Virus record (IMG/VR): IMGVR_UViG_3300027419_000013
Span: 1 to 41,657 of that record
DNA length: 41,657 bases
Source of the DNA: a virus
Direction: 5' to 3' (one strand)
In this document: piece by piece, positions 4,692-40,618 of the stretch
Layout: each line of letters begins with the position of its first letter
Position numbering within the stretch: the stretch's first letter is position 1
Notes under the pieces: model-generated
Database searches by the model: none
The model's input: only the letters and a program-made list of their open reading frames with translations
What the model was told of the DNA's origin: nothing
Made by a program: the position numbers and the translations under genes

Positions 4692-4692
4692 G

Positions 4693-4923: not shown

Positions 4924-4924
4924 A

Positions 4925-6070: not shown

Positions 6071-6137
6071 TTCTTGCCGTTAGCGGCTGGACCGAATACA
6101 TTCATTTTACACCCGTTTGGGGTGCAAAACAAGATTT

Positions 6138-11042: not shown

Positions 11043-11708
11043 TTAAAGGATTTTTGCGAATCTCCCCAAAGACCAGTTGTAGTAGTCTTTAATCTCCTTA
11101 GCAGAAAGAGCTTTGTTATAAATACCAACCTCGTCAAGTTCTCCATCGTAAAAAACTCCTGAAATAGCGTTGTCGCTGAACACCCAAGGGGAATTTCCTG
11201 AGGTACTCGGAGACCCGGTAATGGCGTTGCTTTGCAATAAGGCTCCATTGAGATAAATATCTCCCGTTGAACCCGACCCCCCGAACACAAAAGAAAGATG
11301 ACACCACTTCCCTGCGGTGTAAACAACACTAGCAGTAGTTTGATTGTAATTATTCCCAGCATCTGTATAGACCTGAATCAGGGCAAGTCCAGAGTCTAGG
11401 ACGCGGACAATGACGTAAGCTTGCCCTCCTGCGGCCTTACTAATCCAATCCATATTATTGGTTAAAACCCTTGGTTTAACCCACCCTATGACAGTAAAAG
11501 CTCCCGTACCAAACTTCAAAGTAGCAGAATTGGGGAGTGTAACAACTGAGGAAGTGCCATTAAACAAGGCAGATTGGGCAAACTTTCCACTAGGATAAGA
11601 CATGTTTGCATCCACACCGTTTAATCCACTACCACTTAAGTCATTGGAATTTCCGTTGAAGTGCCACAACCCCACCAGATTTGCTTGGGGCATCAATTCT
11701 CCGACCAT
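11043..11708 (-). CDS. LamG/concanavalin-A-like lectin-domain protein (tail accessory)
   Basis: 'LVGLWHFNGNSNDLSG...', 'GTGAFTVIGWVKP' and 'GELDEVGIYNKALSAKEIKDYY' are hallmark Laminin_G_3 motifs. Confidence 0.8.
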   Translation of the reverse strand: MVGELMPQANLVGLWHFNGNSNDLSGSGLNGVDANMSYPSGKFAQSALFNGTSSVVTLPNSATLKFGTGAFTVIGWVKPRVLTNNMDWISKAAGGQAYVIVRVLDSGLALIQVYTDAGNNYNQTTASVVYTAGKWCHLSFVFGGSGSTGDIYLNGALLQSNAITGSPSTSGNSPWVFSDNAISGVFYDGELDEVGIYNKALSAKEIKDYYNWSLGRFAKIL

Positions 11709-15940: not shown

Positions 15941-16657
15941 TTACCAGAATTTAGAATTGGTCGTCATGTGGCGACCTCCCCCTGAGGTAGGCCAGGTTCC
16001 ATTCGCAAGATTAGTAATTTCTGTTGGGGTTAAGACTCTTGAATAAAAAGCCACATCGTCTATTCTTCCCGCACAATAAACTCCTGAAAACTGGTGGTCA
16101 CAAATGGTAAAAAAGGTGGCGGCATCAAGAGTGGGGTTTCCCGTTACAGCCCCCGTGGTATTTTCAGAACCATTTACATAAAGCCTTGAAATACTGTTAG
16201 GTCGGTCAAAAACTACGGTGATGTGAAACCAATTACTGTCCGAGGATATAGGGGTTCCAGAAGAAGTATAATTAAAAAAATTACTACCGTCCTGGTAGAT
16301 TTGAACGAGTATAGACCCGTTGGTGTTTATTCTTGTGATATGGTATCCACCACTTCCTCCTGCCCTTCCTAACCAATCCTGTGCTCCAGCCGCTCTGTTT
16401 GTGGGATAAACCCAGAAGGCAACAGTCCAACTCCCTGTACCAAAATCCAAATTTGCATCAGAAGCCAGATCTATTGTGGTGGAACTTCCGTTTGAAACAA
16501 CAGCATTGCCAAATTCCCCAGTATTATATGTTACGTCTGTCCCTGAAGCAGAAATTGAATTTGGTCCAGAGTCAGTTAAATTATTTTCAAGCCTTACATA
16601 GTACTCTAGGTTTGCATCCGTAAAGAGAGGTGTTGAATAAAGTTCTATGGCTGCCAT
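15941..16657 (-). CDS. LamG/concanavalin-A-like lectin-domain protein (paralog of 11043..11708)
   Basis: 'LENNLTDSGPN', 'DFGTGSWTVAFWVYP' and 'GRIDDVAFYSRVLTPTEITNL' give the same motif order as the other LamG ORF. Confidence 0.8.
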   Translation of the reverse strand: MAAIELYSTPLFTDANLEYYVRLENNLTDSGPNSISASGTDVTYNTGEFGNAVVSNGSSTTIDLASDANLDFGTGSWTVAFWVYPTNRAAGAQDWLGRAGGSGGYHITRINTNGSILVQIYQDGSNFFNYTSSGTPISSDSNWFHITVVFDRPNSISRLYVNGSENTTGAVTGNPTLDAATFFTICDHQFSGVYCAGRIDDVAFYSRVLTPTEITNLANGTWPTSGGGRHMTTNSKFW

Positions 16658-19652: not shown

Positions 19653-19676
19653 AAAAAAAGACCGCTTTCGCGGCCT
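19653..19676 (-). terminator. rho-independent terminator (downstream boundary of the glyco-island)
   Basis: Minus strand: GGCCGC-GAAA-GCGGTC + TTTTTTT, then the ATG. Confidence 0.8.
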
Positions 19677-19695
19677 GCACCTTTAGAGTTAGGCT

Positions 19696-20472
19696 TTATA
19701 TATTATACCCCGACAGGCAACCGACATTCAAGGGACGCTCCCCGTTAAGCAGGTCTTTTATATGCTTTGTGAACAAGGGCGCAGTTACACTAAAGTATTT
19801 TTCATCCCAGTCTTCTGTCAGTCTCCCGTGCTTGACTCCCCTATATTCAATGCTCTGGTCAATATACAAGTCATAACCCAGTTTCTCCACGCGATGGCTC
19901 AATTCCTTCTCTCCGACTCCCGGACCCTTGTCGTATTCTTCATCCATCCCACCGCAGTCAATTATGGCTTGTTTGGGGATAGAGCAGACGCACATCTCCA
20001 TTTCAGAAGGGGAAACCTTGTAGAAAGTACCGATGTCCATTCTCGCCCTAGGGTCTTGCCAGACCAGATTTGAAGGTTTCCCAATAGAATCGATGTCGGA
20101 GTAGTGATGCCCCACCGCCGTCACTAGAGCTTTGGGGTTGTTTTTGTAGTGTTGCCAGAACCTTGAAAGAGTATCGGGGGGCAACCAGACCATGTCCTGG
20201 ACGTTAACAATGAGTTGTCCTTTTGAAAAAGCATAGGCTTTGTTCCAAGCTTTACTTAAATTCCAGAAATCACCCTCTCTTTTGGGGGGCTCAGGCACGA
20301 AAATGTGAGGCTGTGAGACCGTGTAACCCTCTACATCGGCTCTTAAATGTTCAGGTGCGACAATCAACCATTCAAAATCACGAAAATCCTGTTTGCGAAG
20401 ACTTTTTGCGACAATTTCACAACCTTGGGGTCTGACAGTGGGGGTTATGACTGTTAAGGAAAAGGTTTCCAT
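19696..20472 (-). CDS. glycosyltransferase, GT-A fold (family-2-like)
   Basis: The N-terminal 'LTVITPTVRPQG...LRKQDFRDFEWLIV' resembles the GT2 beta-alpha-beta start. An acidic 'NVQD' sits at the expected DxD position. Confidence 0.6.
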   Translation of the reverse strand: METFSLTVITPTVRPQGCEIVAKSLRKQDFRDFEWLIVAPEHLRADVEGYTVSQPHIFVPEPPKREGDFWNLSKAWNKAYAFSKGQLIVNVQDMVWLPPDTLSRFWQHYKNNPKALVTAVGHHYSDIDSIGKPSNLVWQDPRARMDIGTFYKVSPSEMEMCVCSIPKQAIIDCGGMDEEYDKGPGVGEKELSHRVEKLGYDLYIDQSIEYRGVKHGRLTEDWDEKYFSVTAPLFTKHIKDLLNGERPLNVGCLSGYNI

Positions 20473-21146
20473 GGTTTTGCCAACTCTCCGGGGAATAAAT
20501 TCTCAAATTCTTCCTCGGCAGTCATCCCGTGTTTAATAATGTAGTATTTTTTGTTCGCTTCATTGATGGCTTCATGCTGGGGGTCTCTTCTTACTGTAAA
20601 GGAATCAAGGTGTTGGTACTCGGCTTTGTTAGTGTAGGCTGTCGTATAACCCTTTTCCCTCATTCTTGACCAGAAATCCCAATCATCGTAACTGTTGCGA
20701 AAGTTTTCGTCGTACAACTGAACGTTCCTGACAACAAAAAACGATGAAGTACACCATCTCTCCTTTCCCGATGGCCAAGTCTCATTACTAGGGTTGAAAG
20801 GTTGGTCGTAGGGAATCATCCGATAATGCAAACTCCCAATCTTTGGGTCTTCCAGCACGTCTTCCGCTATCGGCAGCCATTGTGGGGGAACCCTGATGTC
20901 ATTGTTCGCCACGGCCACGATCTTACCGGCTAGTTTAAGCCCTTGGTTTACGGCTCTGGCGTACCCAATGTTTACTTTGTCATAGATTAACAGGTCAGCC
21001 CACTCTCTTAATTGCCCATGACCCATTACTGATCCGTTATCAATTATTATCAACTTGATGTCGTTTTCCCTTAAAGACTTAACCGCACTCTCCGTAACAG
21101 CCATTGTCTCAGGATCGAGTATATAGGCGGGCATGATTACGTCCAT
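20454..21146 (-). CDS. glycosyltransferase family 2
   Basis: 'KLIIIDNGS', 'NIGYARAVNQG' and 'VANNDIRV' form a classic GT2 (rhamnosyltransferase-like) motif set. Confidence 0.8.
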   Translation of the reverse strand: MDVIMPAYILDPETMAVTESAVKSLRENDIKLIIIDNGSVMGHGQLREWADLLIYDKVNIGYARAVNQGLKLAGKIVAVANNDIRVPPQWLPIAEDVLEDPKIGSLHYRMIPYDQPFNPSNETWPSGKERWCTSSFFVVRNVQLYDENFRNSYDDWDFWSRMREKGYTTAYTNKAEYQHLDSFTVRRDPQHEAINEANKKYYIIKHGMTAEEEFENLFPGELAKPWKPFP

Positions 21147-21955
21147 GTCAGTCCTTTCTTAATTTGGTTTGCGTAAATAACATGACTATATCTTTCTAGT
21201 ACAAACTGTCTCGGACTTGTAAGACCAGATTGTTTGTATTCTTGGATGTAACTCATGGCTCTTATGTTTTGGGGGTTGATTACCTCAGGGAGGACGTCGC
21301 AACTCATGGCTTCAAGGACTGTCCTTTCAGATCCGTGAACTGCTGGGATAATTACAGACTGGGACCTCCGATAATAATCCCTTATTTTTTCCGCAGGAAA
21401 GTAGCCGACTTCAACTTTTACCCCTTCATCACAGCACTCTTCATAAATCAGGTGTCCGTCAGGTTGGATTGTCCCCACACATAGAAGGTCACTCCCATAG
21501 TGGGCAATCAAATCTTGCCTCTTCCAGGGAGAGAAAGTGGCGGGGTAGAAGTATTTGATGTCTTTAGATACACTTTGATCTGGTGTAAAGAAGTCAGTGT
21601 CTGTTCCGAAAGCTTTTATTGCCGGTAAACCCGCCATTTTTACATGATTGTAAATGGGTTCGGACTCACAAAACACAACATTAAGTTTTCTTAAGTTGTC
21701 CATGTTCATAGGAGCGGTGGTGAGACAAAGTCCTTTCCAGCAGTCAAACTGGTTTAATTTACCAAAGACTTCTGAATTTGAGTCATCCCAGAACAACAAG
21801 TAGTCCGGAGTGTAGTCCGGAAGCCTCTTACCAATGATCCAATCCACTTCATATTCCTTTTCCAGTAATTCAATTGCCGCCCTCAACCCGTCCCTCCAGT
21901 TCTCATAGACGAGGGGGGCTTTGTCGAAGTACCAGCAGAAAGATAGTTTTTTCAT
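21137..21955 (-). CDS. glycosyltransferase, GT-B fold (group-1-like)
   Basis: The C-terminal 'PAVHGSERTVLEAMSCDVLPEV' matches the GT1/GT4 E-x7-E region. Confidence 0.6.
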   Translation of the reverse strand: MKKLSFCWYFDKAPLVYENWRDGLRAAIELLEKEYEVDWIIGKRLPDYTPDYLLFWDDSNSEVFGKLNQFDCWKGLCLTTAPMNMDNLRKLNVVFCESEPIYNHVKMAGLPAIKAFGTDTDFFTPDQSVSKDIKYFYPATFSPWKRQDLIAHYGSDLLCVGTIQPDGHLIYEECCDEGVKVEVGYFPAEKIRDYYRRSQSVIIPAVHGSERTVLEAMSCDVLPEVINPQNIRAMSYIQEYKQSGLTSPRQFVLERYSHVIYANQIKKGLTWT

Positions 21956-22653
21956 AGCAATTTCCTTATCTTTTCAGGAATAGGCTGTCGGTTGACTTTG
22001 TACCTACCAATATCTCCGTGCGTCCCCGTGTGGTGTCTGGGGTAGTCAAACTCCCTCATGGGATCAAGGTATTTCAGATGCAGAAGATACAGTCCAGTAT
22101 CTTTAACATCCTTTACATCCTGTTCGTGTCCTTTAATGTAATGAAAGCCTTCACCCCAGTCAGTAGGAATCCTTGAGAGAGCGGGTTTGTTGTAGCTTGC
22201 AGTGTCGTCCTTACACCACCACTTCCTCTGCATAAGAATGGGTTGGTCATATAGAATCGGGTTTTCATCATCCTCCTGATACACATCGAACCCCTCGCAG
22301 TAAGTTTGAGCCAGATCACATTTGCTCATAAAGTGCCTCAACCCGTCATATTTTTCCGGATCAGCCACAATAATCTCATCGGAATCCGAGTAAAGCACCC
22401 ACCCATGATCAACCAATAACTCCCTCTGTTTTTCGAAAACCTTCTGGTGGGAGTTCATGTTGTAGAACTCGTCTTTAAGATCGATATAAGTGAAAGGGTA
22501 TTTCTCCTTTAGGGCTTCGAATGTTCCAGGAGCGTTTCCGTTATACGTTCCGGCGAACACAAATAGGTCTTCAAAGTATCTAGAGTAGTACCTTAACCAC
22601 ATCTCCAAAAAGATCTCGCACCTGAAGATTCTGGTCATGGCAGCGTTTTTCAT
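21952..22653 (-). CDS. glycosyltransferase, GT-A fold (GT2/GT92-like)
   Basis: 'EIFLEMWLRYYSRYFEDLFVF' and 'LYSDSDEIIV' (DxD) are as in Glyco_tranf_2_4/GT92-type enzymes. Confidence 0.55.
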   Translation of the reverse strand: MKNAAMTRIFRCEIFLEMWLRYYSRYFEDLFVFAGTYNGNAPGTFEALKEKYPFTYIDLKDEFYNMNSHQKVFEKQRELLVDHGWVLYSDSDEIIVADPEKYDGLRHFMSKCDLAQTYCEGFDVYQEDDENPILYDQPILMQRKWWCKDDTASYNKPALSRIPTDWGEGFHYIKGHEQDVKDVKDTGLYLLHLKYLDPMREFDYPRHHTGTHGDIGRYKVNRQPIPEKIRKLL

Positions 22654-23138
22654 TTCTTAAACTTCAATTTCCTTAACACCTCTTCCACACACTCAAAGTA
22701 CCGGGGAAGTGCGAGATTGTAGTATTCTCCAAAAGTCTTAACCCTGGGCGTTTCAAAGAACACCGAGTGAATCAACGGTCCTTCATCTACGTCAGCCGTC
22801 ATGAAGTGACACTGTATGGAAGCCTGAGTGTCTTTGTTGTCCATGTATCTTTGAACGGGAGTCTGGCCTTTGTATTTGTAGAGGCAGTCGTGAAAGTTAA
22901 TACACGGTCCTTTGAGATACTCCATGGGGATGATTCTTTCGCCGTGACAGGACACAAACAGGTCGTACTTACCCATTACTTCCCGGTTAACCGTTTCCAA
23001 TCCAAAAGCCTTAGCCGCCGACCTGGTAATGTCATCATTTGGAATAACCTTAACCTTGAACCCGTTGGCCAAGAGGTCTAACAGAACCACCAGTCCTACT
23101 TGGGACTTACCATAGAAGATGGCCGTCTTTTGTTTCAT
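22650..23138 (-). CDS. formyltransferase catalytic domain (sugar N-formyltransferase-like, compact)
   Basis: 'INFHDCLYKYKGQTPVQR' and 'HFMTADVDEGPLI' correspond to the N/H and D catalytic motifs of the Fmt/PurN/ArnA N-terminal domain. It is only 162 aa, with no C-terminal domain. Confidence 0.6.
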   Translation of the reverse strand: MKQKTAIFYGKSQVGLVVLLDLLANGFKVKVIPNDDITRSAAKAFGLETVNREVMGKYDLFVSCHGERIIPMEYLKGPCINFHDCLYKYKGQTPVQRYMDNKDTQASIQCHFMTADVDEGPLIHSVFFETPRVKTFGEYYNLALPRYFECVEEVLRKLKFKK

Positions 23139-23734
23139 TTGAAAGCTGCGAATTTAGATAAATCGGGGTAACCTTGGGATTCTCTGGGGAGATCAGCTAA
23201 CTCCTTGTCTTTAATGAAGTGGAACTGTAATAACCCTCTGGCAGCCTGTTCGGGGGTCATGTAGGCGTTGTATCCCACAATGTCTATGTTGTCTTCAGCT
23301 ATGGATACACCCTCAGTTCTTCCATCAAACCTAGCCTTCCTTATCCAATCCGCCGCTTCTTTGTCATCGGTAAGCACCATTCCTCCTCTACCTATAGGGC
23401 AGAGCTTTCTCATGTGGAAGGAAATGCCATAAAGCGTTCCGGGGATGTACATTCCTCTTTTGAAACGCAAAGCGCTATCAATAATTCCATAGGGTTTCAG
23501 TTCATAACATCCTTCCCAGTCTTCATCTCTCCATTTAATCGTTCCTCCGGCGTGGATAATCGAAGCAGGGACGCTGATATAAGTTCTCCGGGGGATCTCT
23601 ACCTCTTTGACCTTCTTATACAGACATGACAATAGCAAAGCCATGGTTAATGATTCTGTCGAAACCCCGTACTTTGCCCCTGCAAATTCGGCAATGTTAT
23701 TCTCAAAGTCCCTAACAACCTGAAAAGCATCCAT
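23135..23734 (-). CDS. DegT/DnrJ/EryC1-like PLP sugar aminotransferase, unusually short (199 aa)
   Basis: 'VRDFENNIAEFAGAKYGVSTESLTMALLL', 'IIDSA' and 'SFHMRKLCPIGRGGMVLTDD' (PLP-Lys motif SFxxxK...GEGG) occur in the family order. The protein is about half the usual length. Confidence 0.55.
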   Translation of the reverse strand: MDAFQVVRDFENNIAEFAGAKYGVSTESLTMALLLSCLYKKVKEVEIPRRTYISVPASIIHAGGTIKWRDEDWEGCYELKPYGIIDSALRFKRGMYIPGTLYGISFHMRKLCPIGRGGMVLTDDKEAADWIRKARFDGRTEGVSIAEDNIDIVGYNAYMTPEQAARGLLQFHFIKDKELADLPRESQGYPDLSKFAAFK

Positions 23735-24542
23735 AAAACTCCTTCACCGCTTCTTCAATGGAGTGGTGGGCGGTAAAATCCAACTCCTTGACGCGGTCGT
23801 AATTAATCGTGTAACTTCTGTTGTCTGCCCCATCTTCCTTGTAAACAATACTCGCCCCTGTCGCTACGGAAATCCTGTGTCCGATTTCGTCAATCGAGAG
23901 GTTTTGTCCGTTTGTCCCCAAGTTATACAGCCTGTGGGGAGGATCTTTTACCGCCAGAGCCAACTTTATACCATTAACAACGTCTTTTACGTGTAGTAAT
24001 GACCTTCTTTTGTCTTTTCCGGCGATGGTAATCTTTCCTGTATCGTAAGCTGATTTTGTCATTCCATTTACGATGGTGTCAAATCGCGTAAAGGGTGCAA
24101 GTCCGTAACAGGTGGCAAAACGGAAGACGACACTGTTGACATCGGGGTGTAAAAACAATTCCTCTGAAAGGTGTTTTGTTTTGGCGTATAAGGTTAAAGG
24201 CCTCACATTACCATCTTCTGTACAAAGACCTTCCTGAGAGCCGTACACCGACCCAGATGAAGCGTAAACGATGCGCTTACCAGTATTTCTAAGGAATTTG
24301 GAGATTAAATCATTGGCTAAGTAATTGGTCTGCCAGGTAAACTCAGGATCTCTATCCAGTAGAGGGTCCATTGATGTCCCCGCCAAGTGAACGATAGCTT
24401 CAGCGTTCTGGAGAGCTAGCATAATAGTCCTGACATTTCTTATGTCCTGACCTTGTTTCAGGTCGTAAACCTCAAAATCTTCCAGATCGTCACAAAGAGC
24501 CGACCCTACATACCCTAATCCTCCCAAAACTAATATTTTCAT
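23712..24542 (-). CDS. NAD-dependent epimerase/dehydratase (extended SDR)
   Basis: 'MKILVLGGLGYVGS' is a GxxGxxG motif, with 'ASSGSVYG' and the catalytic 'YAKTK' (YxxxK). Confidence 0.85.
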   Translation of the reverse strand: MKILVLGGLGYVGSALCDDLEDFEVYDLKQGQDIRNVRTIMLALQNAEAIVHLAGTSMDPLLDRDPEFTWQTNYLANDLISKFLRNTGKRIVYASSGSVYGSQEGLCTEDGNVRPLTLYAKTKHLSEELFLHPDVNSVVFRFATCYGLAPFTRFDTIVNGMTKSAYDTGKITIAGKDKRRSLLHVKDVVNGIKLALAVKDPPHRLYNLGTNGQNLSIDEIGHRISVATGASIVYKEDGADNRSYTINYDRVKELDFTAHHSIEEAVKEFYGCFSGC

Positions 24543-25093
24543 ATCTTTTTACATACTGCGATTCCCTGTTCGATTTGCACCGAAGAGAAGAATCTATCAG
24601 ATAATTTATTGATTGCTCGTTTGACAGTAAACCTCAGTTCTCCCCTAAGACCACGGCCGTGACATTCGGTGTTGTAGTCATGAAACAGCACATAACTGCC
24701 ACTCCTGACGCAGGGGACAAACAACTCGATGTCTTCCATGACCTGTTTGAATGAATGATCGCCGTCAATAAATAACAAGTCGATGGGTTGTATCCACTCC
24801 GCGCCTGCTTCACTTGAGTGTTTTCTGATGAAATCAACCCTTAACCCTTTGATATTTTCCATTAACTCTCCCTCAACGTTTCCCATTGCCATTGAATCTA
24901 TTGTTGTTATCTCACTTTTGGGGGAGGAGAGAGCTAATAGAGTTGTCGACCTTCCGGCGTAACACCCAATCTCAACAATAGTCCCCTTTACCTTTGAAGC
25001 GTACTTATGAAGAACCTCACAGTCTTCAAATCCCATCCAACCGGGGATGTCTTTAATAGAATCGAAAATCTCATCAAAAGTCATAGTACGCAA
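24539..25093 (-). CDS. class I SAM-dependent methyltransferase (Methyltransf_24/CmcI-like)
   Basis: 'IVEIGCYAGRSTTLLA' is motif I, and 'DLLFIDGDHSF' is also present. Confidence 0.75.
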   Translation of the reverse strand: MRTMTFDEIFDSIKDIPGWMGFEDCEVLHKYASKVKGTIVEIGCYAGRSTTLLALSSPKSEITTIDSMAMGNVEGELMENIKGLRVDFIRKHSSEAGAEWIQPIDLLFIDGDHSFKQVMEDIELFVPCVRSGSYVLFHDYNTECHGRGLRGELRFTVKRAINKLSDRFFSSVQIEQGIAVCKKI

Positions 25094-25680
25094 AAGCCAA
25101 ACCCTGAATAATGACAGGGGTCACTAATATCGAGCTTGTCGTGAAAGAGTTCTTCCCACACCGCTTCCATTCCCTCATTTAGGTGTATGTCATCGAAAAT
25201 AAGTATCGACCCCCTCTTCATAAAGGGTGAATAAAGTAAAAGCTCTCTCCTTAATTGAATCTCCTCATGCAGGGTATCAATGAACCACACATCTGTCTTT
25301 TTGAGGTCAATCCCTTTCCAGATGTCCAAGTCCAGATCGTCACTCAGAATCTTCTTTACTTGGGGGTAGTCGTGCTTCATCCACTTCCAGGCTATTTCAG
25401 GATCATTGTCGACTGAGTAGAGAATGGAATCTTCAGGAAGAGCCGTCGCCATGAGGATGGTCGAGATACCTGAAGCTGCGCCCAACTCGACTACTTGTTT
25501 GGGTTGTAAAAGTTTCATCAGGCAGTGAAGCCACTGGTAGTACTGATTGGGTTTTCCGGAGATATTCTTAACCTCCAACTGTTGTCCCCAACCGACATTG
25601 GCAATATGATCCTGTAATGGAACCAGATCCAACTCTTTCACTAGCTCCATTACTTTCTCGTTCAGTTCTACCGCTTTCAT
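25081..25680 (-). CDS. class I SAM-dependent methyltransferase (second, CmcI-like)
   Basis: 'VVELGAASGISTILMA' and 'DVWFIDTLHEE' give the same architecture as the neighbouring methyltransferase. Confidence 0.7.
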   Translation of the reverse strand: MKAVELNEKVMELVKELDLVPLQDHIANVGWGQQLEVKNISGKPNQYYQWLHCLMKLLQPKQVVELGAASGISTILMATALPEDSILYSVDNDPEIAWKWMKHDYPQVKKILSDDLDLDIWKGIDLKKTDVWFIDTLHEEIQLRRELLLYSPFMKRGSILIFDDIHLNEGMEAVWEELFHDKLDISDPCHYSGFGFCVL

Positions 25681-25823
25681 TTTTTGAACCTTTCTTTGTA
25701 ATTAGCTGCTGACTCGCAAATCTTTGAACAATACACTTTTGGCAAGTCACCCCTTTTGTTCTGGGCGAAGGTAAATAAGATTTTCCCGCACCCGGCACAT
25801 TTTGTCGTATACATTCCGCTCAT
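25677..25823 (-). CDS. 48-aa zinc-ribbon micro-protein inside the glyco-island (not in the ORF track in this frame)
   Basis: Hand translation: MSGMYTTKCAGCGKILFTFAQNKRGDLPKVYCSKICESAANYKERFKK. ATGA overlaps at both ends (25820-25823 and 25677-25680). Confidence 0.55.
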   Translation of the reverse strand: MSGMYTTKCAGCGKILFTFAQNKRGDLPKVYCSKICESAANYKERFKK

Positions 25824-27136
25824 ATTTTCACCTCCAGTAGATAACAACCTTCAGCGTCTAAGCCGAAGTAAATAATTTCGTGGCCTTTTACCATTTCTAT
25901 CAGTTCTTCCTTGGTGAAGATTCTTAAGTGTCCTGAGGGCAATCCGTCATCCCATGTCCCATGTTCTTCTGTCTTGTGCTGCAAGATCCCGACGTGTTCA
26001 GGTGAGGGGGTGGTTAGAAATAACGTCCCGCCACTTCTCCCCAGTGTCAGGGCGTGGTCGATCGCCTTTTTAGCGTCAGGGAGGTGTTCTATGACCTCCG
26101 CCATCACTACAACGTCATATTTACCCTTGTGATCCATTAAGTCTTCACAAACAAACTCTGCTGGTACCGAAAACTTCTTTGACCTTTCGTTGGCTAAGTC
26201 CACAGACGGTTTGAATAAATTGACCCCGGTGCAGCGGACACCTTTACCGGCCAGGGTTAGGCAAAGGTACCCGTCCGCACAACCGAGATCAACCAGCGTC
26301 TTGGGTGAAAGTTCCTGTATTCTTTTGACCAGCCATTTGAACCTGGGGTGGGTTTGATCTACTTGAAAGGCAAGGTCTTCGGGCATAGGTGTTTCTTTGA
26401 GGTCTTCCCCGTAGTATTTCTTGTAGTCTTCTGGGTTGAAAGCGTGTTTGACCCTTAACCACAACCTGTCTTTTCTCGGCCAATCGGTGTCTTTTACTAA
26501 TTCCCAGGCTTTTAGGGCTTGGTTGTTCTCAAGCAGATCTTCTACTTGCCGATCAAGTGACATTTCAGACTTAAATTCCTCATTCCACTGCCTTGCCACA
26601 TTCTCCCAACTGAATTTCTTCGCCCATTCCATCATTTTTGGACGGATGAACTCCTGTTGCTTCTCGTCTTTGAGTAACGAGGTTAAAGATTTTACATACA
26701 GATCCCTAACTTCGGGGTCATAAATGTCTCCGTCAACCTTTATCCCATACTGAACGGTTTCTGTAAGCGCGGCGTAGTTTATAACCACAGGAATGGCTCC
26801 CCAGGCCTGAGCTTTCATCGCTGTAATGCAGGAAATTTCACCAAAGTGGGTGGGGTACGCCCAGATAGCGGCGTTTTCCATCTCCTTCCTTACTGCTTCG
26901 TGGGAGATCCTCCCTAGATGGGTAATACCGGGCTGGGACATTAATTCATTCACCTTACGTTTCCACTCCTGTCTCTCCGGATTGTCGTGATAAACCTTGT
27001 CAAATAGATTCCAGCCGTAGAAAACCCTCAGTTGTGCATCGGGGACTTCCTCTTTGACCTTTGGCCACATCTTCAACAGATGCTCCAAGCCCCTATCGTA
27101 TGAAGACCCATATACCATCAGGTGTGCGTTTCTCAT
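25820..27136 (-). CDS. bifunctional protein: GT-B C-terminal half plus class I SAM methyltransferase
   Basis: The N-terminal part has 'LMVYGSSYDRGLEHLL...PDAQLRVFYGW' and 'GEISCITAMKAQAWGAIPVV' (GT1 C-domain). The C-terminal part has 'LVDLGCADGYLCLTLA' and 'VVVMAEVIEHLPD' (methyltransferase). Confidence 0.7.
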   Translation of the reverse strand: MRNAHLMVYGSSYDRGLEHLLKMWPKVKEEVPDAQLRVFYGWNLFDKVYHDNPERQEWKRKVNELMSQPGITHLGRISHEAVRKEMENAAIWAYPTHFGEISCITAMKAQAWGAIPVVINYAALTETVQYGIKVDGDIYDPEVRDLYVKSLTSLLKDEKQQEFIRPKMMEWAKKFSWENVARQWNEEFKSEMSLDRQVEDLLENNQALKAWELVKDTDWPRKDRLWLRVKHAFNPEDYKKYYGEDLKETPMPEDLAFQVDQTHPRFKWLVKRIQELSPKTLVDLGCADGYLCLTLAGKGVRCTGVNLFKPSVDLANERSKKFSVPAEFVCEDLMDHKGKYDVVVMAEVIEHLPDAKKAIDHALTLGRSGGTLFLTTPSPEHVGILQHKTEEHGTWDDGLPSGHLRIFTKEELIEMVKGHEIIYFGLDAEGCYLLEVKI

Positions 27137-28881
27137 AGATTAATGCCGTTCGCTGTAATTAACACTTTATCTTCAGCCAGGGAAGGGACATTATCCCTAT
27201 GCCACTTTGAAAGGAACATAACTCTGTCTACTTTTTCGACTCTTTCTTTGGTGTAGTGGAGAGGACTTTGGATGTCGTGGTTCCAGCAGTATTTCTTCAT
27301 GGCCTTAATGGGGAAATCGAACAACCCAATCTGTCTCCAGGCGATGAATACATTGAAGTAATCTTTGAGGTTGAGATGGTAGTGGGGAAGCCAGTGCGCC
27401 CCGTCATAATCACCCGCTTCTTCCATGGGGTCAGCATAGATCGTAACTTCCCATCCCAGTTTCGTTAATTCTCTAGCCATATTTATAACTGCCTCTTCCG
27501 AACCCCCCACACCTTTGGCGACACTCTTTGGCGACCACTGTTCAAACCCCGGACCGCAATAGATAGCAATCTCGTTACCCCTCCACTCTCTGGGTGGCAT
27601 GTACTCTGCTCTCATTTGTACAAGAGCTGGTTCATTGGCGATCTCCTTGGGAATAGCATTGATAATGGCTTTGAGTTTTTCAACCTGCCCGGTTGATTTC
27701 AGGTGATAGGCTAGTTTGACTGTCCAGTGGGCTATGTCATTTCTGTGTTTCAAGTCTTCAACCTCTTTAACCCGGCTGACGTTTATATCGGTAGGCATAA
27801 TCCTGACTAACTCAGTGGCGACCTTGTGACACAATTCAAGTTGTCCCGTGTTTAAGTAGATATGGAACAAGGCTTCATAGATCATGGACTTATAATCCCT
27901 GGGGTTTATAACGAGGGTTGTTTTGGGGATGTCTACCCGGTCAACCAGTTTGATCCAATGTAAAGCTCTTCCCCAGTCTTTTTGCACCACATAACAGAGG
28001 GCGAGTTGGATATAGATTGAGGGGAATTTGGGATCTTCATGTAAGGCTTCCAGGAGGGCGTAAACCGCTTTGTCGAACTCTCCCATCTCGCGGTGGATCA
28101 TGGATATGTATTCCCAACATTGTGCCCTTTCCTCCTGCCAGCCCGACTTACGGATGTAGTCCTTCATCAGTTCTAACGTTAAAGAGCCAAGACCCTCTCC
28201 TATTGGTTCATAAAGAAGCTCAGGCAACCTTGTATCAAAGTACGCCTTTGCGAGGTAATAAATAGGCCGAGGGTCTTCGGGGATGCGCATGACTTCTTCT
28301 TCTAAGATCTCTATGTTTCTAAACATGGATTTCTCCATATCTTCAGGTCTGATTAAGTGCACCACCATAAAGCCCTTGAAATCGGTCTTATCTGATGGTA
28401 CTTTTTCTATTAATGTTTCGTGTATGGGGGCGATCCACTCATACGTCCCGTCGTTTCTCACCAGTCTTTCTCTCAAGTGTTCTATTAGTATATTTTTGAC
28501 GTTTCCATTTTCATCCAGCTCCACTTGGTACAGGTAGCGAGTGAAGATGGCCTTTATGTTATTAGCCTCTGCCAACTGAACGGCCTGTCTGAAAGTCTCC
28601 GCTCCTACCACTACATCATCTGCGTCACACCAAAATATCCATTCATAACCCTTGGCTTGTTGGAAGTTGAAGTTTCTGGCTGCGGAGAAGTCTTTAATCC
28701 ATGAAAACCACGACCATTCTGCGTTGTACTCTTTACAGATCTTCTTAATCTTTTTCTGGGGTTCCTTAGTCCCTGTTATGAATATCTTATCTACATGTTT
28801 GGCGAAGGAATTTAAACACCTCCGCAGTTCCTCTGCCTCGGAATCATCCTTTATTATGAGACAAGCCGCTATTTTAGACAT
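27133..28881 (-). CDS. GT2 glycosyltransferase, helical TPR-like region and GT-B N-terminal half
   Basis: 'IAACLIIKDDSE', 'DFSAARNF' and 'IFWCDADDVV' mark the GT2 domain. A helical repeat-like middle follows ('YYLAKAYF', 'ALLEALHEDP'). Then 'IAIYCGPG...GVGGSEEAVINMARELTKLGWEVTIY' is a GT4 N-domain. The track ORF starts at 28914, inside the terminator. The ATG at 28881 follows the T-tract. Confidence 0.7.
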   Translation of the reverse strand: MSKIAACLIIKDDSEAEELRRCLNSFAKHVDKIFITGTKEPQKKIKKICKEYNAEWSWFSWIKDFSAARNFNFQQAKGYEWIFWCDADDVVVGAETFRQAVQLAEANNIKAIFTRYLYQVELDENGNVKNILIEHLRERLVRNDGTYEWIAPIHETLIEKVPSDKTDFKGFMVVHLIRPEDMEKSMFRNIEILEEEVMRIPEDPRPIYYLAKAYFDTRLPELLYEPIGEGLGSLTLELMKDYIRKSGWQEERAQCWEYISMIHREMGEFDKAVYALLEALHEDPKFPSIYIQLALCYVVQKDWGRALHWIKLVDRVDIPKTTLVINPRDYKSMIYEALFHIYLNTGQLELCHKVATELVRIMPTDINVSRVKEVEDLKHRNDIAHWTVKLAYHLKSTGQVEKLKAIINAIPKEIANEPALVQMRAEYMPPREWRGNEIAIYCGPGFEQWSPKSVAKGVGGSEEAVINMARELTKLGWEVTIYADPMEEAGDYDGAHWLPHYHLNLKDYFNVFIAWRQIGLFDFPIKAMKKYCWNHDIQSPLHYTKERVEKVDRVMFLSKWHRDNVPSLAEDKVLITANGINL

Positions 28882-28911
28882 AAAAAAAGCGGGCCTCTTT
28901 CGAGAACCCGC
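28882..28911 (-). terminator. rho-independent terminator (upstream boundary of the glyco-island)
   Basis: Minus strand: GCGGG(T)TCTC-GAAA-GAGGCCCGC + TTTTTTT, then the ATG. Confidence 0.75.
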
Positions 28912-29755: not shown

Positions 29756-30670
29756 CTAACCGTTTACGTTGTAGCCTGATCGGGCGACAGAAGTTCTTTC
29801 ACCAAGGTATTCCAAAGTGAACTCTCCCACGATTTGGCCGTTTTCACGGTCACCGTCCTTGGCAAGCATCTCCTTGAAGGGCTTGCGTAGGTAGGCAACG
29901 CGGTATTTGTCCTCTTTGATACCGATGAAGAACGGACCCGGTGTCGCGGCTGCGGACGGAACGTACCTGTGTTGCATAATTCTATGCACACCGGCAGAGG
30001 TTTCGTAGATAGCCACTGGCTGGGTCAGTTTCTTGTCTGATTGATCCACGTATTTTGTGGCACCGGCTGTGAAGCCGTCAATCTTCCTCTTAAGACCGAA
30101 GGGAACCAGGACGAGGTCGAAGCTGTTGTCAGTTCCACCTTTATCCCAGGAGGCTTGCGCCATATCCTGAAACTCGGTTTCTGATAACGAGGTACCAGAG
30201 TTGCGAGCGGTGTAAAGGGTGGTAATGACTGACTTCAGACCCGCCATGGACGCACCTGTTCCGGAGACTCCCGAAGAGAGTGCACCTTGTACCAGGGCGT
30301 ATTCCTGTTTCATCTTCCAGGTTCTAAGAGCTTTCGCACTCTGGTAATTCAGAGGGTCCTGTCCACTTCCTGGATCAGTTGCTCTTTCAGTACCGGAGAC
30401 GCGGAAGGTTTCCGTCAAGATGGCCGTCAGATTGACGATTCTTGAAGGCTGGGTCAAAGCCGAATATGTTGCGGCGGCACCCTCACCTGCGAAGGTCACA
30501 GAAGAAGGAGGAGTAATGTAATCCTCCAACCACTGATGGATCGTGTCTTTTGCCGTGGAGGTCTTAAGCATTGTTGCCAATGGAGTATCATCCGGCGTTA
30601 CGTCGGCTACGATACTCAATAAGTCCTCACGTCGTGAGACATCATCAAATGTTACTAGCATGTTATTCAC
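29756..30670 (-). CDS. major capsid protein (DUF5309/SU10-like family)
   Basis: The N-terminal 'RREDLLSIVADVTPDDTPLATMLKTSTAKDTIHQWLED' matches the conserved start of DUF5309-type coat proteins. It follows the scaffold gene and has a good SD (GAAAGGAGTG). Confidence 0.8.
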   Translation of the reverse strand: MNNMLVTFDDVSRREDLLSIVADVTPDDTPLATMLKTSTAKDTIHQWLEDYITPPSSVTFAGEGAAATYSALTQPSRIVNLTAILTETFRVSGTERATDPGSGQDPLNYQSAKALRTWKMKQEYALVQGALSSGVSGTGASMAGLKSVITTLYTARNSGTSLSETEFQDMAQASWDKGGTDNSFDLVLVPFGLKRKIDGFTAGATKYVDQSDKKLTQPVAIYETSAGVHRIMQHRYVPSAAATPGPFFIGIKEDKYRVAYLRKPFKEMLAKDGDRENGQIVGEFTLEYLGERTSVARSGYNVNG

Positions 30671-30725: not shown

Positions 30726-31523
30726 CTACTTGTTAGCCCAAGGTATAGAGTTCATGCGGGCAGCGATTGCATCAACTCCCGTATCTCCTCCCCTCCGGGT
30801 CAATTCCCTTAGTCGTTCCATGTCAGCTTGTGACTGCTGGGTACGAGACTGGGAAGAGGTTTGAGTGTTGGCTTGCAAAGCCGCCTGCTCTTTCTCTGTT
30901 ACCTCTTGCAACGCCTTCTCCGCACCTGATTTCTCAGCTTTGGAAACAGCTTTGCTGTACTTCTTCGCAATGGAGTCAGCAATGTCAGAGACGGTCACGT
31001 TCTCCCCTTTCCATTTTCGGAAGAGCCATTTACTGGCTATTTCATCCTCAATTTCAGGGTCGGCAAACAATTCAGGGTGTCTCTCGCGAGCTTTATACTC
31101 GTCGATCTGTTCAGCCACTGATTGTTCTGCTCTTACAGATGCTTGTCTTGCTGATTCAGCATGTAGGGCTGCGTTGTAAGCTGGTCGGTTAATCTCGCCC
31201 GTGATAGGGTCTGTAAAATCTTCAGTCCTTATCTGTTGAGCCAAATTAACTTGGTTTACTGGCGGCCTGAAAGCCGAAAAGGCAGACTCGTTCTTTGAAC
31301 GTGCTTTGCGCTCATCCTTAAGCCGTTTGATCTCCAGACGTTGTTCTTGGAAAGCCCTCCGCTGTCCCTCGACATCTTCTGGAAAATCATCTGTTGTTGC
31401 GCTTACGGTTGCGTCCGTAGTTTGGGTTTGCTCCTCAGTAGAAGGAGCTTCAACTACTGGCGGGGTAGTCTGGGTAGTTTCCTCTACCTCTTTTTGTTCA
31501 GCCACTTGTTTCAAATCGTCCAT
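30726..31523 (-). CDS. scaffolding protein
   Basis: Acidic, helical, Q/E/A-rich protein of about 265 aa between the portal-side genes and the capsid gene. The ATG at 31523 lies 8 nt after AAGGAGGTG. The track start at 31532 is a GTG. Confidence 0.7.
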   Translation of the reverse strand: MDDLKQVAEQKEVEETTQTTPPVVEAPSTEEQTQTTDATVSATTDDFPEDVEGQRRAFQEQRLEIKRLKDERKARSKNESAFSAFRPPVNQVNLAQQIRTEDFTDPITGEINRPAYNAALHAESARQASVRAEQSVAEQIDEYKARERHPELFADPEIEDEIASKWLFRKWKGENVTVSDIADSIAKKYSKAVSKAEKSGAEKALQEVTEKEQAALQANTQTSSQSRTQQSQADMERLRELTRRGGDTGVDAIAARMNSIPWANK

Positions 31524-31612
31524 TTTCATCACCTCCTTTCTTCAGCCTGATAACGTTGGCGAGACGAAAAATGGGTCCAGCCTTATGAGCTGGTCTCGAC
31601 CTTAAGCCGGGA

Positions 31613-37000: not shown

Positions 37001-37222
37001 CTACAGAGTTAATTTTGCATCAACCTCACGCAGTAAGGTTTTTGCATATTGAAGAGATTCTATATTCCCATCTATCACGTTGGTTGCGGCCAATTTGTTT
37101 ATTTGTTGCCCGGTTGTCGGGGGGGTTCCATTAACCTTACTCAATATTTCTTGAGCCACCTCCACAACCTCACTCACAACCATTGATAAGGTCTTTTTTT
37201 CTCCTGCTATTGGTTCATTCAT
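37001..37222 (-). CDS. hypothetical protein
   Basis: 73-aa ORF. TAATG overlap with the upstream gene. Confidence 0.55.
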   Translation of the reverse strand: MNEPIAGEKKTLSMVVSEVVEVAQEILSKVNGTPPTTGQQINKLAATNVIDGNIESLQYAKTLLREVDAKLTL

Positions 37223-37548
37223 TATTTCTCACCTCCTTCAAAGATTACTTTTCTCATATGATTTAATAATTCATCAGTCTTAAAAGTCCGTTGTTTTTCC
37301 TCATGTACGGCCATCCACGCTTCAAGTTCAATTTCTAATCTATTTAAGATTTCTCTTTTCTCTTTCATTCGGCCATAATCATGTTCCTTCTCCAATTCAA
37401 AATGTTTAAAAATACATTCCTTATGAAACCAGCCGCCGCAACCTGTACAGCGGTAAGCGTCTTTTAGTTCTAACTTCTGCATACACCCACCCTTAAAAGT
37501 CAAGGCGACATTTCCCTTTGGATTAGCGTTTCCACACTCAACTTTCAT
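37222..37548 (-). CDS. hypothetical zinc-finger-like protein
   Basis: 108 aa, containing 'CTGCGGWFHKEC'. Confidence 0.55.
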   Translation of the reverse strand: MKVECGNANPKGNVALTFKGGCMQKLELKDAYRCTGCGGWFHKECIFKHFELEKEHDYGRMKEKREILNRLEIELEAWMAVHEEKQRTFKTDELLNHMRKVIFEGGEK

Positions 37549-39732: not shown

Positions 39733-39923
39733 TTCTTTCCTTTCTTTTTAGCCTTTTGTGTAACATATATCGTTGTTCTTACTTTCAAACATCCATAGCA
39801 GATTTGAGTTAAAGCGTCATGGAAGGTTGAGTAGATGGCTTGTTGGGTATGTCGCCCCTCACACTGTCGGATATGGATTCTGACTTCCTGTTGGGTATTA
39901 AAATGCTCGTATTGAAAGTTCAT
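39729..39923 (-). CDS. hypothetical protein
   Basis: 64-aa ORF, ATGA-coupled to the pentapeptide-repeat gene. Confidence 0.5.
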   Translation of the reverse strand: MNFQYEHFNTQQEVRIHIRQCEGRHTQQAIYSTFHDALTQICYGCLKVRTTIYVTQKAKKKGKK

Positions 39924-40618
39924 ACGACCTTCCTGTTCTTAAACTTGGTTAATTCTTTCTCCGGCACTCTTCGGATAACTTTTAATTCTCTGAGCCTGAA
40001 CTTGCCGTCGGTGTTGTACGGAATGCTTACAATATCCTTAGGATTGAACTTCACCTCAATGATGGGATTGTCTGAGTTTCTGTTTAATAGACACCATTCC
40101 AGGGTCGCAACATGGATACCCTCACTGCACTCAATCAATTCTGAGTAATCACACTCGTCCTTTTTGAGCCGGACTGTTTTACCTATTGAGTAATCAAGAC
40201 CGCCCTGCTGTGGACTTGTTAATTCTTTGGTTACATATTTGTAGGCGACTAACTTGTTCTTTTGCTGTTTAAGGAGGGAAAGCAAAGAACCCGTTAATGG
40301 ATTGAGGTTTTTGGCTCCCCATAGGTTGGCTCCCCGTAGGTTGGCTTCCCATAGGTTGGCTCCCCGTAGGTTGGCTCCCCATAGGTTGGCTCCCCATAGG
40401 TTGGCTCCCCATAGGTTGGCTCCCCGTAGGTTGGCTTCCTGTAGGTTGGCTTCCTGTAGGTTGGCTCCCCGTAGGTTGGCTTCCTGTAGGTTGGCTCCCC
40501 GTAGGTTGGCTCCCCGTCTAACCGCTTCTTCTAAAGTATCCTTGATAGTATTATCTTTCTTTTCAAATTCAAAAAGCAAAGAACCCCAGATTGATATTAT
40601 TTGTATTTTAGTTTTCAT
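39920..40618 (-). CDS. pentapeptide-repeat protein with an unrecognised C-terminal domain
   Basis: About 14 consecutive A(N/D)LxG-type pentapeptides ([15 protein letters not shown]...). A domain of about 125 aa follows ('...[24 protein letters not shown]...'). Confidence 0.9.
40311..40520. repeat. 15-bp tandem repeat array (~14 units) encoding the pentapeptide repeats
   Basis: Units ttggctcccc(a/g)tagg / ttggcttcctgtagg recur with exact 15-nt periodicity. Confidence 0.95.

Follow-up and report, generated by a model that had tools for sequence, protein, structure and literature searches.

A core predicted glycosylation module within the virion gene block of uncultured phages

The analysed window is a 41,657-nt stretch covering the whole of IMG/VR record IMGVR_UViG_3300027419_000013, the ends of which overlap by 127 bp, giving a complete uncultured phage genome of 41,530 bp. 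Between an SU10-type capsid gene and the fibre/tail genes, on the same strand inside the structural gene block, 9.26 kb (about 22% of the genome) is occupied by a gapless array (28881-19696) of 12 minus-strand ORFs overlapping start to stop, flanked by two hairpin+T7 elements. These ORFs encode six glycosyltransferase units, three SAM methyltransferases, an SDR, a compact DegT, a compact N-formyltransferase, and a 48-aa zinc-ribbon-like protein. The features, in order of transcription, are as follows.

28882..28911 (minus strand), hairpin (28911-28889) and T7 run (28888-28882) resembling a terminator, dG -13.8, ending directly at the ATG of ORF A
27133..28881 (minus strand), ORF A, 582 aa, GT2 (GT-A), TPR superhelix and the N-terminal Rossmann half of a GT4 (GT-B)
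25820..27136 (minus strand), ORF B, 438 aa, C-terminal Rossmann half of the same GT4 and a class I SAM methyltransferase (Methyltransf_23)
25677..25823 (minus strand), 48-aa CxxC...CxxxC zinc-ribbon-like ORF, overlapping the stop of B and the start of C
25081..25680 (minus strand), ORF C, 199 aa, Methyltransf_24 / O-methyltransferase (CmcI-like)
24539..25084 (minus strand), ORF D, 181 aa from ATG 25084 (184 aa from TTG 25093), Methyltransf_24 / rhamnosyl O-methyltransferase-like
23712..24542 (minus strand), ORF E, 276 aa, extended SDR (GGLGYVG, YAKTK)
23135..23734 (minus strand), ORF F, 199 aa, compact DegT-type PLP sugar aminotransferase, large domain only
22650..23138 (minus strand), ORF G, 162 aa, compact sugar N-formyltransferase
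21952..22653 (minus strand), ORF H, 233 aa, GT-A (Glyco_tranf_2_4)
21137..21955 (minus strand), ORF I, 272 aa, small GT4-like GT-B (HGSERTVLEAM)
20454..21146 (minus strand), ORF J, 230 aa, GT2
19696..20472 (minus strand), ORF K, 258 aa, SpsA-like GT-A
19653..19676 (minus strand), hairpin (19676-19660) and T7 run (19659-19653) resembling a terminator, dG -10.0, ending directly at the ATG of the next (165-aa) gene

The observation made in the sequence-only reading, namely a terminator-bounded run of co-directional sugar-enzyme genes, was confirmed with corrections. All 11 ORFs that it listed exist, and the 48-aa ORF, which it had missed, fills the only apparent gap. ORF A most likely starts at ATG 28881 rather than at 28914, because the hairpin lies inside the longer reading. 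Both terminator-like elements are real, and elements of this strength occur 7 times on the coding strand, 0 times on the other strand, and 0 times in 100 dinucleotide shuffles, indicating that they are not due to chance. However, they punctuate the whole late region and are not specific to this module. The hairpin-T-run-ATG arrangement upstream of A is conserved, with different stem sequences, in the close clade.

Pfam searches placed the GT2 domains of A (N-terminus), J, and H above the family cut-offs, whereas K is a weak GT2 (22.2 bits, just under the 23.3 cut-off), although a profile built from K hits SpsA at E 5.7e-5. ORF I gave no Pfam or PDB hit on its own, but its profile weakly hits the GT4 enzyme PglA, and some homologues carry PF13692. 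The second GT-B of the earlier reading is one GT4 split in its interdomain linker between the C-terminus of A (Glyco_transf_4) and the N-terminus of B (Glycos_transf_1), and A and B align collinearly to single fused proteins of 784-852 aa in more distant relatives (1200 aa in the relative L030). However, the canonical second Glu of the GT4 EX7E motif appears, on direct reading of the sequence, to be replaced in B. The three methyltransferases (B C-terminus; C, E 2.5e-13; D, E 8.8e-19) and the SDR were confirmed by Pfam, as were the DegT (F) and the formyltransferase (G), although in compact forms. ORF A has more than 1237 homologues, nearly all about 583 aa among the 120 listed, with invariant D13 and D86xD88D89, the catalytic DxD being retained. 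Its AlphaFold2 model (pLDDT 86) is structurally closest, by Foldseek against the PDB, to the SunS/ThuS peptide S-glycosyltransferases, followed by the TPR+GT-B protein O-glycosyltransferases SPINDLY and OGT. The 48-aa ORF and ORF D are both supported by gene calls, and the family of the 48-aa ORF is conserved after B in both clades, with only faint zinc-finger Pfam hits.

The E-F-G trio is a rare but coherent cassette, in which E orthologues always accompany F and G, and the same order and lengths recur in loci L121, L122, and L123. The best PDB sequence match of E is 6vo6 (E 3e-25), and it carries SSGSVYG in place of the dehydratase acid pair. ORF F belongs to a family of 140 representative clusters at E<1e-30, mostly 197-215 aa, in which D86 and K110 (the PLP lysine) are invariant, with K110 aligning with the catalytic Lys186 region of GDP-perosamine synthase. 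Its AlphaFold2 model (pLDDT 97) matches GDP-perosamine synthase and ArnB by Foldseek, and a mini-DegT fused to a GNAT acetyltransferase exists elsewhere. However, F lacks the C-terminal small domain of characterised DegT enzymes, and its activity is therefore only inferred. In ORF G, the catalytic N81/H83/D118 triad is invariant, the best PDB matches are sugar N-formyltransferases, and the best NCBIfam hit is dTDP-4-amino-4,6-dideoxyglucose formyltransferase, so that F and G are closest to 4-aminotransferases and 4-amino-sugar N-formyltransferases.

Comparison with related loci indicates that the module is not an accessory island. The lead gene A follows the capsid gene in 70 of 70 unique loci with at least 2.5 kb of flank, across capsid identities of 33-99%, including the set retrieved by capsid alone, whereas cultured LUZ24-like and Ss1-like phages lack it at this position. 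Among the 49 loci with at least 9 kb of flank, A and B are present in 49, K in 46, and H in 8, while I is part of the frequent core. The centre of the module varies between relatives like an O-antigen locus, with full-length DegT+WbqC, hexapeptide acyltransferase, C-methyltransferase, RGP/GT75, and extra methyltransferase genes being swapped between conserved ends. One relative carries an intein inside the GT4 and others carry HNH endonucleases at the A/B junction, and such elements usually persist in conserved, important genes. Chimeric assembly, which had been named as a possible refutation, is very unlikely, since the contig closes on itself, the same gene order occurs in a separate assembly, and the order recurs in at least 70 relatives.

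The interpretation in the sequence-only reading, a self-contained, terminator-insulated island that glycosylates virion proteins, was only partly supported. The enzyme assignments hold, no integrase or hm-base enzymes were found among ORFs of 90 aa or more, and the suggestion that GT2+TPR points to a protein or peptide acceptor is backed by predicted structure. However, "island" and "terminator-insulated" are not supported by the synteny and the seven elements. Nor is "self-contained", as there is no sugar-1-phosphate nucleotidyltransferase and no clear 4,6-dehydratase, so host NDP-sugars are needed and the sugar cannot be named. The neighbouring fibres had been proposed as obvious acceptors, but the fibre p576 is found in only some relatives, while A and B are universal, making a universal protein (capsid, portal, adaptor, or nozzle) the more economical acceptor.

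Collectively, the best explanation (probability roughly 0.6) is a late-expressed, cytoplasmic, multi-enzyme protein-glycosylation module that forms a core part of the virion gene block of a large uncultured podovirus clade, and the phage probably coats its own particle proteins with a variable methylated, formylated glycan. The domain and fold assignments, motifs, and gene order are shown by the analysis, whereas the reaction steps, enzyme activities, acceptor, presence of a glycan on any protein, and biological role are all inferred, and late expression is inferred from position only. In this view, the SunS-like GT2 domain of A, positioned by its TPR superhelix, would place the first sugar on a Ser, Thr, or Cys of a phage structural protein, probably a universal one such as the major capsid protein. 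The GT4 formed by A and B, together with units I, H, J, and K, would extend a short heteroglycan, which the three methyltransferases would O-methylate. The cassette would supply a formamido sugar, with E oxidising a host NDP-sugar to a keto sugar, F transaminating it, and G N-formylating the amine. The hairpin+T7 element after the capsid block would lower transcription, so that the enzymes are made in catalytic rather than structural amounts, and the variable middle would give different relatives different glycans. The glycan probably serves as a surface coat for stability, shielding, or attachment. A cytoplasmic site is indicated by the absence of any hydrophobic 19-mer typical of a membrane helix in the 11 larger proteins, and by the absence of flippase, polymerase, or polyprenyl-phosphate transferase domains in the Pfam searches.

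An alternative, though unlikely, scenario is remodelling of the host envelope, in which the soluble glycosyltransferases act at the cytoplasmic face on a glycopolymer intermediate (wall teichoic acid, lipopolysaccharide, or capsule precursor), for example to block superinfection or to stop progeny sticking to debris. GT2, GT4, and terminal O-methylation are also the standard toolkit of polysaccharide synthesis, the soluble wall-teichoic-acid glycosyltransferases TarP and TarS appear among the weaker fold matches of A (E about 2e-7), and the groundwater virus literature treats phage glycosyltransferases as envelope-directed auxiliary genes (PMC10980836). However, no membrane segment, lipid-carrier transferase, integrase, or other sign of lysogeny was found, the position within the late structural block and universality in the clade are unusual for a surface-conversion accessory, and the best fold matches are protein and peptide glycosyltransferases by about ten orders of magnitude in E-value. 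Slightly less likely is glycosylation of a protein outside the virion, either a host protein (pilin, S-layer, flagellin, or receptor) or a non-structural phage protein, for takeover or receptor masking. The SunS/OGT-like architecture does not say which protein is the acceptor, and bacterial GT2+TPR enzymes such as Listeria GmaR glycosylate flagellin, but the fixed position next to the capsid gene over deep divergence argues against this reading, and six glycosyltransferase units plus tailoring enzymes would be elaborate for an inhibitory modification.

A glycocin-like product, with A glycosylating a small peptide such as the conserved 4-Cys ORF just after B, as SunS does with sublancin, is very doubtful, although SunS and ThuS are the top structural matches. 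The CxxC...CxxxC pattern in a Lys/Arg-rich protein looks like a zinc ribbon rather than the nested Cx6C disulfide hairpin of glycocins, no leader-peptidase ABC transporter or thiol-disulfide oxidoreductase was found by Pfam, and five further glycosyltransferase units would be superfluous. DNA glycosylation is the least likely, since, although phage glycosyltransferases can build glycans on hydroxymethylated bases (Pyle et al. 2024, as cited in PMC12619734), no hydroxymethylase, thymidylate-synthase-like enzyme, DNA polymerase, or base-modification gene was detected among ORFs of 90 aa or more, and a TPR-bearing SunS-like enzyme and CmcI-type sugar O-methyltransferases do not fit DNA substrates.

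Among known systems, the SunS/ThuS glycocin S-glycosyltransferases (PDB 7MSN, 7MSK) share with A a GT-A domain followed by a TPR-like helical domain and are its best structural matches (E 1e-17, about 400 aligned columns) and best NCBIfam family. However, identity is only 16-17%, the NCBIfam score is far below the family cut-off (28 vs 350 bits), no glycocin precursor, transporter, or disulfide enzyme is present, and A carries an extra half GT-B. The GT41 enzymes OGT and SPINDLY (E 1e-10 to 1e-7) likewise have a TPR superhelix immediately N-terminal to a GT-B unit, but by Pfam the GT-B here is GT4-like, split over two polypeptides, and preceded by a GT-A domain. In split GT-B enzymes such as Alg13/Alg14, the two Rossmann halves also lie on separate polypeptides, although these belong to a different GT family, and here the split coincides with a homing-endonuclease insertion site and each half is fused to other catalytic domains. 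As in the amino-sugar N-formylation pathways (VioA/VioF, ArnA/ArnB, WlaRD, WbkC), which provide the closest solved structures and NCBIfam families, an SDR, a DegT aminotransferase, and an N-formyltransferase are encoded side by side, but F keeps only the large PLP domain (199 aa, against about 370), G is 162 aa against about 240-260, and E is closest to 6vo6, the C4-dehydrogenase Cj1427, rather than to a 4,6-dehydratase. Giant viruses (chlorovirus PBCV-1 capsid glycans, mimivirus fibrils) also encode cytoplasmic multi-domain glycosyltransferases with methyltransferase domains and amino-sugar pathways that decorate capsid proteins, and their GT2+helical proteins appear among the BFVD matches, but they belong to a different virus realm and host domain, and the resemblance shown is one of fold only. 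In mycobacteriophages (Che8, Corndog, Myrna; Freeman et al. 2023, as summarised in PMC12619734 and PMC12582341), phage-encoded glycosyltransferases, with methyltransferases, are proposed or shown to decorate capsid and tail proteins, including the tail tube (PMC12619734), in the cytoplasm, which provides a precedent for what is only inferred here. However, the mycobacteriophage genes are accessory, few, and found in siphoviruses of Actinobacteria, whereas the lead enzyme described here is universal in a podovirus clade, fixed next to the capsid gene, and combines a GT2+TPR+GT4 architecture with a variable tailoring cassette.

Eleven co-directional minus-strand open reading frames (ORFs), designated A to K, were confirmed between two hairpin elements, and a twelfth of 48 aa, which the sequence-only reading had not listed, was predicted by an independent gene caller and is conserved in relatives. 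This small ORF fills the only apparent gap, so that the block forms one unbroken array of ORFs whose starts overlap the preceding stops. The observation made by the sequence-only reading holds, with corrections. The features of the window referred to here are as follows.

1-127 and 41531-41657, window ends, identical over 127 bp
39920-40618 (minus) and 37222-37548 (minus), early region, encoding a pentapeptide-repeat protein and a RING-like zinc-finger protein
30726-31532 (minus), 268-aa scaffold-like protein
29756-30670 (minus), capsid gene
28911-28889, hairpin, followed by T7 at 28888-28882 and directly by ATG 28881, upstream boundary
28881-19696 (minus), array of twelve ORFs
25677-25823 (minus), 48-aa Lys/Arg-rich CxxC...CxxxC zinc-ribbon-like ORF between B and C
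23135-23734 (minus), ORF F, compact DegT-like protein
19676-19660, hairpin, followed by T7 at 19659-19653, abutting the ATG of the next gene, downstream boundary
11043-11708 (minus) and 15941-16657 (minus), tail region, encoding two Laminin_G_3 (ConA-like lectin fold) proteins

ATG 28881, rather than ATG 28914, is the likely true start of ORF A. A general scan of the region for sigma-70 and terminator consensus sequences was not enriched over shuffles overall, and only the strict hairpin+T7 class was significant. A strict search (T run of at least 7, preceded by a hairpin of dG -9 or lower) found seven such elements on the coding strand, with T-runs starting at 34369, 28888, 19659, 15861, 12578, 10964 and 6052, compared with none on the other strand and none in 100 dinucleotide shuffles. 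The terminators are therefore real, but they punctuate the whole late region and, contrary to what had been proposed, do not specially insulate this block. Six of these GC-hairpin elements read TTTTTTTAT. Four run straight into an ATG start codon with no Shine-Dalgarno sequence, and the one before the portal gene is followed by GTG. They may act both as attenuating terminators and as translation start regions. In the closest clade, the hairpin-T-run-ATG arrangement upstream of A is kept while the stem sequences differ. Because the window ends overlap by exactly 127 bp, the contig is a closed circle or terminally redundant, with a unique length of 41,530 bp, of which the block makes up about 22%. 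The possibility of a chimeric assembly was rejected on the basis of this closure and of the recurrence of the same arrangement among relatives.

Pfam assignments of the eleven larger ORFs
A: GT2 + TPR + Glyco_transf_4 N-terminal domain
B: Glycos_transf_1 C-terminal domain + Methyltransf_23
C, D: Methyltransf_24 / CmcI-like O-methyltransferases
E: extended SDR
F: DegT, only 199 aa
G: Formyl_trans_N, only 162 aa
H: Glyco_tranf_2_4
I: no hit
J: GT2
K: GT2 just under the cut-off

Profiles built from relatives place K with SpsA (E 5.7e-5) and place I, weakly, with the GT4 enzyme PglA through the 'EGFPRTVLEAM'-type motif, and several I homologues carry PF13692, whereas a single-sequence search of the PDB with I returned no hit. 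In total, six glycosyltransferase units were identified by Pfam, profile or fold. None of the eleven larger proteins has a hydrophobic stretch typical of a membrane helix. A megablast search of the block against GenBank phages gave no match, PHROGs searches with the unknown flanking proteins and with I and K gave nothing useful, and tRNA and Rfam scans of the window found nothing. The rest of the genome is that of a small podovirus, with an SU10-type capsid and adaptor, a portal, TerL/TerS, an internal virion protein, a Gp10_C fibre, the two Laminin_G_3 proteins, a CHAP lysin, NinG and a metallophosphoesterase, and no integrase, DNA polymerase or hydroxymethylase was detected in it. The 48-aa zinc-ribbon-like ORF is conserved after B in both the split and the fused clades (protein families f30, f16 and f48).

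The two Rossmann domains of a GT4 (GT-B) glycosyltransferase lie on two polypeptides, with the N-terminal Glyco_transf_4 domain at residues 458-522 of A and the C-terminal Glycos_transf_1 domain at residues 12-162 of B. A ends in ...ITANGINL followed by the stop codon, and B starts 'MRNAHLMVYGSSYDRGLEHLL'. In more distant relatives, one protein of 784-852 aa aligns collinearly with A (residues 1-582) and then with B (residues 2-207), and the break is therefore in the interdomain linker of a GT4. Of the EX7E motif, the first Glu is present ('FGEISCITAM'), and the second position appears to be substituted when read by eye without alignment to reference sequences. A frameshift or sequencing error was rejected as the cause of the split, because nearly all of the 120 closest homologues of A listed (more than 1237 in total) are about 583 aa and stop at the same place, and because other genes lie between the halves in some relatives. 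These include HNH homing endonucleases in the relatives designated L007, L039 and L042, a 96-98-aa ORF in relative L005, and a genuine Cpn60/GroEL-type chaperonin gene (Pfam E 1.6e-48) in GenBank relative MW202497.1 (L001; locus 3472-7791), where the A-like gene (567 aa) and the B-like gene (196 aa) lie between the terminase and portal genes. In relative L030 (8884-12486), the fused A+B protein (1200 aa) contains a Hint+LAGLIDADG intein of about 360 aa inside the GT4 C-terminal domain. We infer that endonuclease invasion split the gene and that the enzyme now works as a two-chain GT-B. In addition, the large terminase appears as two adjacent ORFs (about 263 + 214 aa) in several relatives (L003, L004, L007, L029, L034, L043 and L044), suggesting another split or interrupted core gene in the clade.

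The block had been described as an island, but it does not show the variable presence among close relatives expected of a mobile or accessory element. Using A as probe, 41 IMG/VR loci were recovered, and using only the capsid protein as probe, 80 loci were recovered. After removal of duplicates, 70 of 70 loci with at least 2.5 kb downstream of the capsid gene carry A, which starts 0.4-4 kb (median 0.6 kb) after the capsid gene across 33-99% capsid identity. Only the central tailoring genes vary, and in relatives this centre holds full-length DegT plus WbqC, hexapeptide acyltransferases, TylC3-type C-methyltransferases, RGP/GT75, Glyco_trans_1_2 and further methyltransferases. Cultured phages with distantly related capsids (Cronobacter Ss1, Pseudomonas tf) go from the capsid gene to the tail genes with no such module, and in GenBank only four uncultured Manatee Spring phages carry an A homologue. 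The resulting picture is one of conserved ends with a swappable middle, much like a surface-polysaccharide locus, fixed inside the virion gene block.

Loci in which each protein of the window was found, among 49 loci with at least 9 kb of flank (tblastn, E 1e-4)
A: 49
B: 49
K: 46
I: 33
J: 31
C: 22
E: 14
D: 11
H: 8
F: 3
G: 3

The AlphaFold2 model of A, built from 28 sequences, has a mean pLDDT of 86. Foldseek comparison with the PDB gave as top matches SunS and ThuS (7msn and 7msk; E 1e-17, about 400 aligned columns, TM 0.57-0.68 on the target), which put sugars on Cys or Ser of peptides, supporting a predicted GT-A domain followed by a TPR-like substrate-binding domain. Next came SPINDLY and OGT (TPR + GT-B protein O-glycosyltransferases, E 1e-10 to 1e-7), whereas the wall-teichoic-acid enzymes TarP and TarS followed at about 2e-7, alongside the weaker OGT entries. 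NCBIfam independently ranks the SunS family (TIGR04195) first, but at 28 bits against a cut-off of 350, so that A does not qualify as a family member by sequence score. In BFVD, the best match is an uncultured-phage 'GT2-like' protein (TM 0.75), followed by many giant-virus GT2 proteins.

F belongs to a large uncharacterized family of DegT-like proteins that keep only the large PLP domain (140 representative clusters at E<1e-30, mostly 197-215 aa; P0241-P0390 in our protein set), some members of which are fused to a GNAT acetyltransferase or to a GT4C+FkbM protein, or lie next to HNH endonucleases. The pyridine-N Asp (D86) and the PLP-binding Lys (K110) are invariant, and K110 aligns with the Lys186 region of perosamine synthase. 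The predicted model of F (pLDDT 97) superposes on the large PLP domain of GDP-perosamine synthase, ArnB, PseC and similar enzymes (TM-score on the query 0.7). However, the C-terminal small domain of DegT/DnrJ/EryC1 sugar aminotransferases (full length about 360 aa) is absent from F and, as the whole family is about 200 aa, it constitutes a distinct compact subfamily. G has twelve homologues, of which the eleven full-length ones are 160-175 aa, and the Asn-His-Asp triad (N81, H83 and D118) is invariant in 11 sequences. Its nearest structures and families are sugar N-formyltransferases, including dTDP-4-amino-4,6-dideoxyglucose formyltransferase. Against the curated cut-offs, G scores 27.6 against 26.1 bits in Pfam, just passing, and 33.9 against 238 bits in NCBIfam, not passing. 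The hypothesis that the short DegT and formyltransferase genes are pseudogenes was rejected, because both belong to length-conserved families with invariant catalytic residues.

E is closest to PDB 6vo6, which appears to be Cj1427, although a literature search for 6VO6 returned nothing relevant. Cj1427 is a C4-dehydrogenase that makes a 4-keto sugar (PMC10680097). E lacks the acidic pair of 4,6-dehydratases. E, F and G recur in the same order in three relatives (L121, L122 and L123). The inferred route runs from a host NDP-sugar to a keto sugar, then an amino sugar and then a formamido sugar. In L121, a 74%-identical relative, a short (127-aa) SIS_2 sugar-isomerase-like gene (9621-10004) sits between the mini-DegT and the mini-formyltransferase, and an extra GalE-like SDR lies upstream; together with the resemblance of E to 6vo6, this hints at a heptose or other unusual sugar. 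No nucleotidyltransferase is present, so the system is not fully self-contained, contrary to what had been proposed.

Collectively, the fixed position in the structural gene block, the universality across the clade, the resemblance of A to protein and peptide glycosyltransferases, the soluble enzymes without lipid-carrier machinery, and the lack of any sign of lysogeny or of a DNA-modification pathway best fit cytoplasmic glycosylation of a virion protein, with tailoring by methylation and a formamido sugar (probability about 0.6). The gene array, the domain, profile and fold assignments, the conserved residues and the gene order rest directly on the analysis, whereas the attachment of a glycan to capsid or tail proteins, the acceptor, the enzymatic activities, the two-chain action of the split GT-B and the biological role are inferred. 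The interpretation offered by the sequence-only reading, a self-contained island that glycosylates virion proteins, with the neighbouring fibres as obvious acceptors, is partly supported. Because A and B are universal while the fibre p576 is not, a universal protein is the more economical acceptor. An alignment of the capsid with those of cultured relatives that lack the module revealed Ser/Thr motifs shared within the clade and absent from these relatives ('RNSGTSLSE', 'AATPGP'), and the scaffold-like protein begins with a Thr/Gln/Glu/Pro-rich stretch ('TTQTTPPVVEAPSTEEQTQTTDATVSATTDD'); these are possible acceptor sites and no more than a lead.

Among the alternatives, remodelling of the host envelope, for which the fold matches to TarP and TarS might speak, is unlikely, as no membrane segments were found in the eleven larger proteins, and no Pfam domains for membrane proteins (flippase or Gtr-type) or lipid-carrier steps and no integrase were found. 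Glycosylation of another protein target is slightly less likely still. A glycocin-like peptide product is improbable, since no glycocin precursor, ABC transporter/peptidase or thiol-disulfide oxidoreductase domains were found in the genome by Pfam and the small ORF is zinc-ribbon-like. DNA glycosylation is the least likely.

Relatives come from Manatee Spring and from a contig whose name points to the 0.1-µm fraction of Hainich groundwater well H43. Whole-genome-sized relatives are co-binned with MAGs of Candidatus Peribacteria, Patescibacteria and Dojkabacteria, and relatives also with one of Spirochaetes (L046, L048, P0040 and L123 are the relatives concerned in the co-binning and the groundwater contig), which is a weak hint of ultra-small CPR bacterial hosts and not a finding. 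A more far-reaching scenario, which is not excluded but remains tentative and less likely than not, is that an entire, widespread but uncultured podovirus clade, found in groundwater and spring samples and possibly infecting ultra-small Patescibacteria, obligatorily coats a core virion protein (probably the capsid) with a strain-variable, O-methylated and N-acylated heteroglycan, a viral counterpart of an O-antigen. This glycan would be started by a SunS-like O- or S-glycosyltransferase fused through TPRs to a GT-B that homing endonucleases have split into two polypeptides, and it would be diversified by swapping tailoring cassettes that include previously uncharacterized half-size DegT and formyltransferase enzymes.

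Virion glycosylation in phages has been documented only for some mycobacteriophages, where it is an accessory trait. If the present reading is right, glycosylation is instead a core, ancient and diversifying feature of a whole phage lineage that spends about a fifth of a small genome on it, which bears on how phage surfaces evolve and on how phages are recognized by hosts or immune systems. The locus also offers testable enzymology, including a putative SunS/OGT-like bifunctional protein glycosyltransferase, a naturally split GT-B with fused, endonuclease-interrupted and intein-containing versions available for comparison, and a large family of roughly 200-aa single-domain DegT aminotransferases. 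In addition, it cautions against labelling phage glycosyltransferases in metagenomes as host-envelope auxiliary metabolic genes by default. No paper describing this clade or module was found in our literature searches, although systems of a comparable kind exist. By function, the nearest is mycobacteriophage virion glycosylation (PMC12619734; PMC12582341). By architecture, the nearest are SunS/ThuS and OGT/SPINDLY, and by logic, giant-virus capsid glycosylation is similar.
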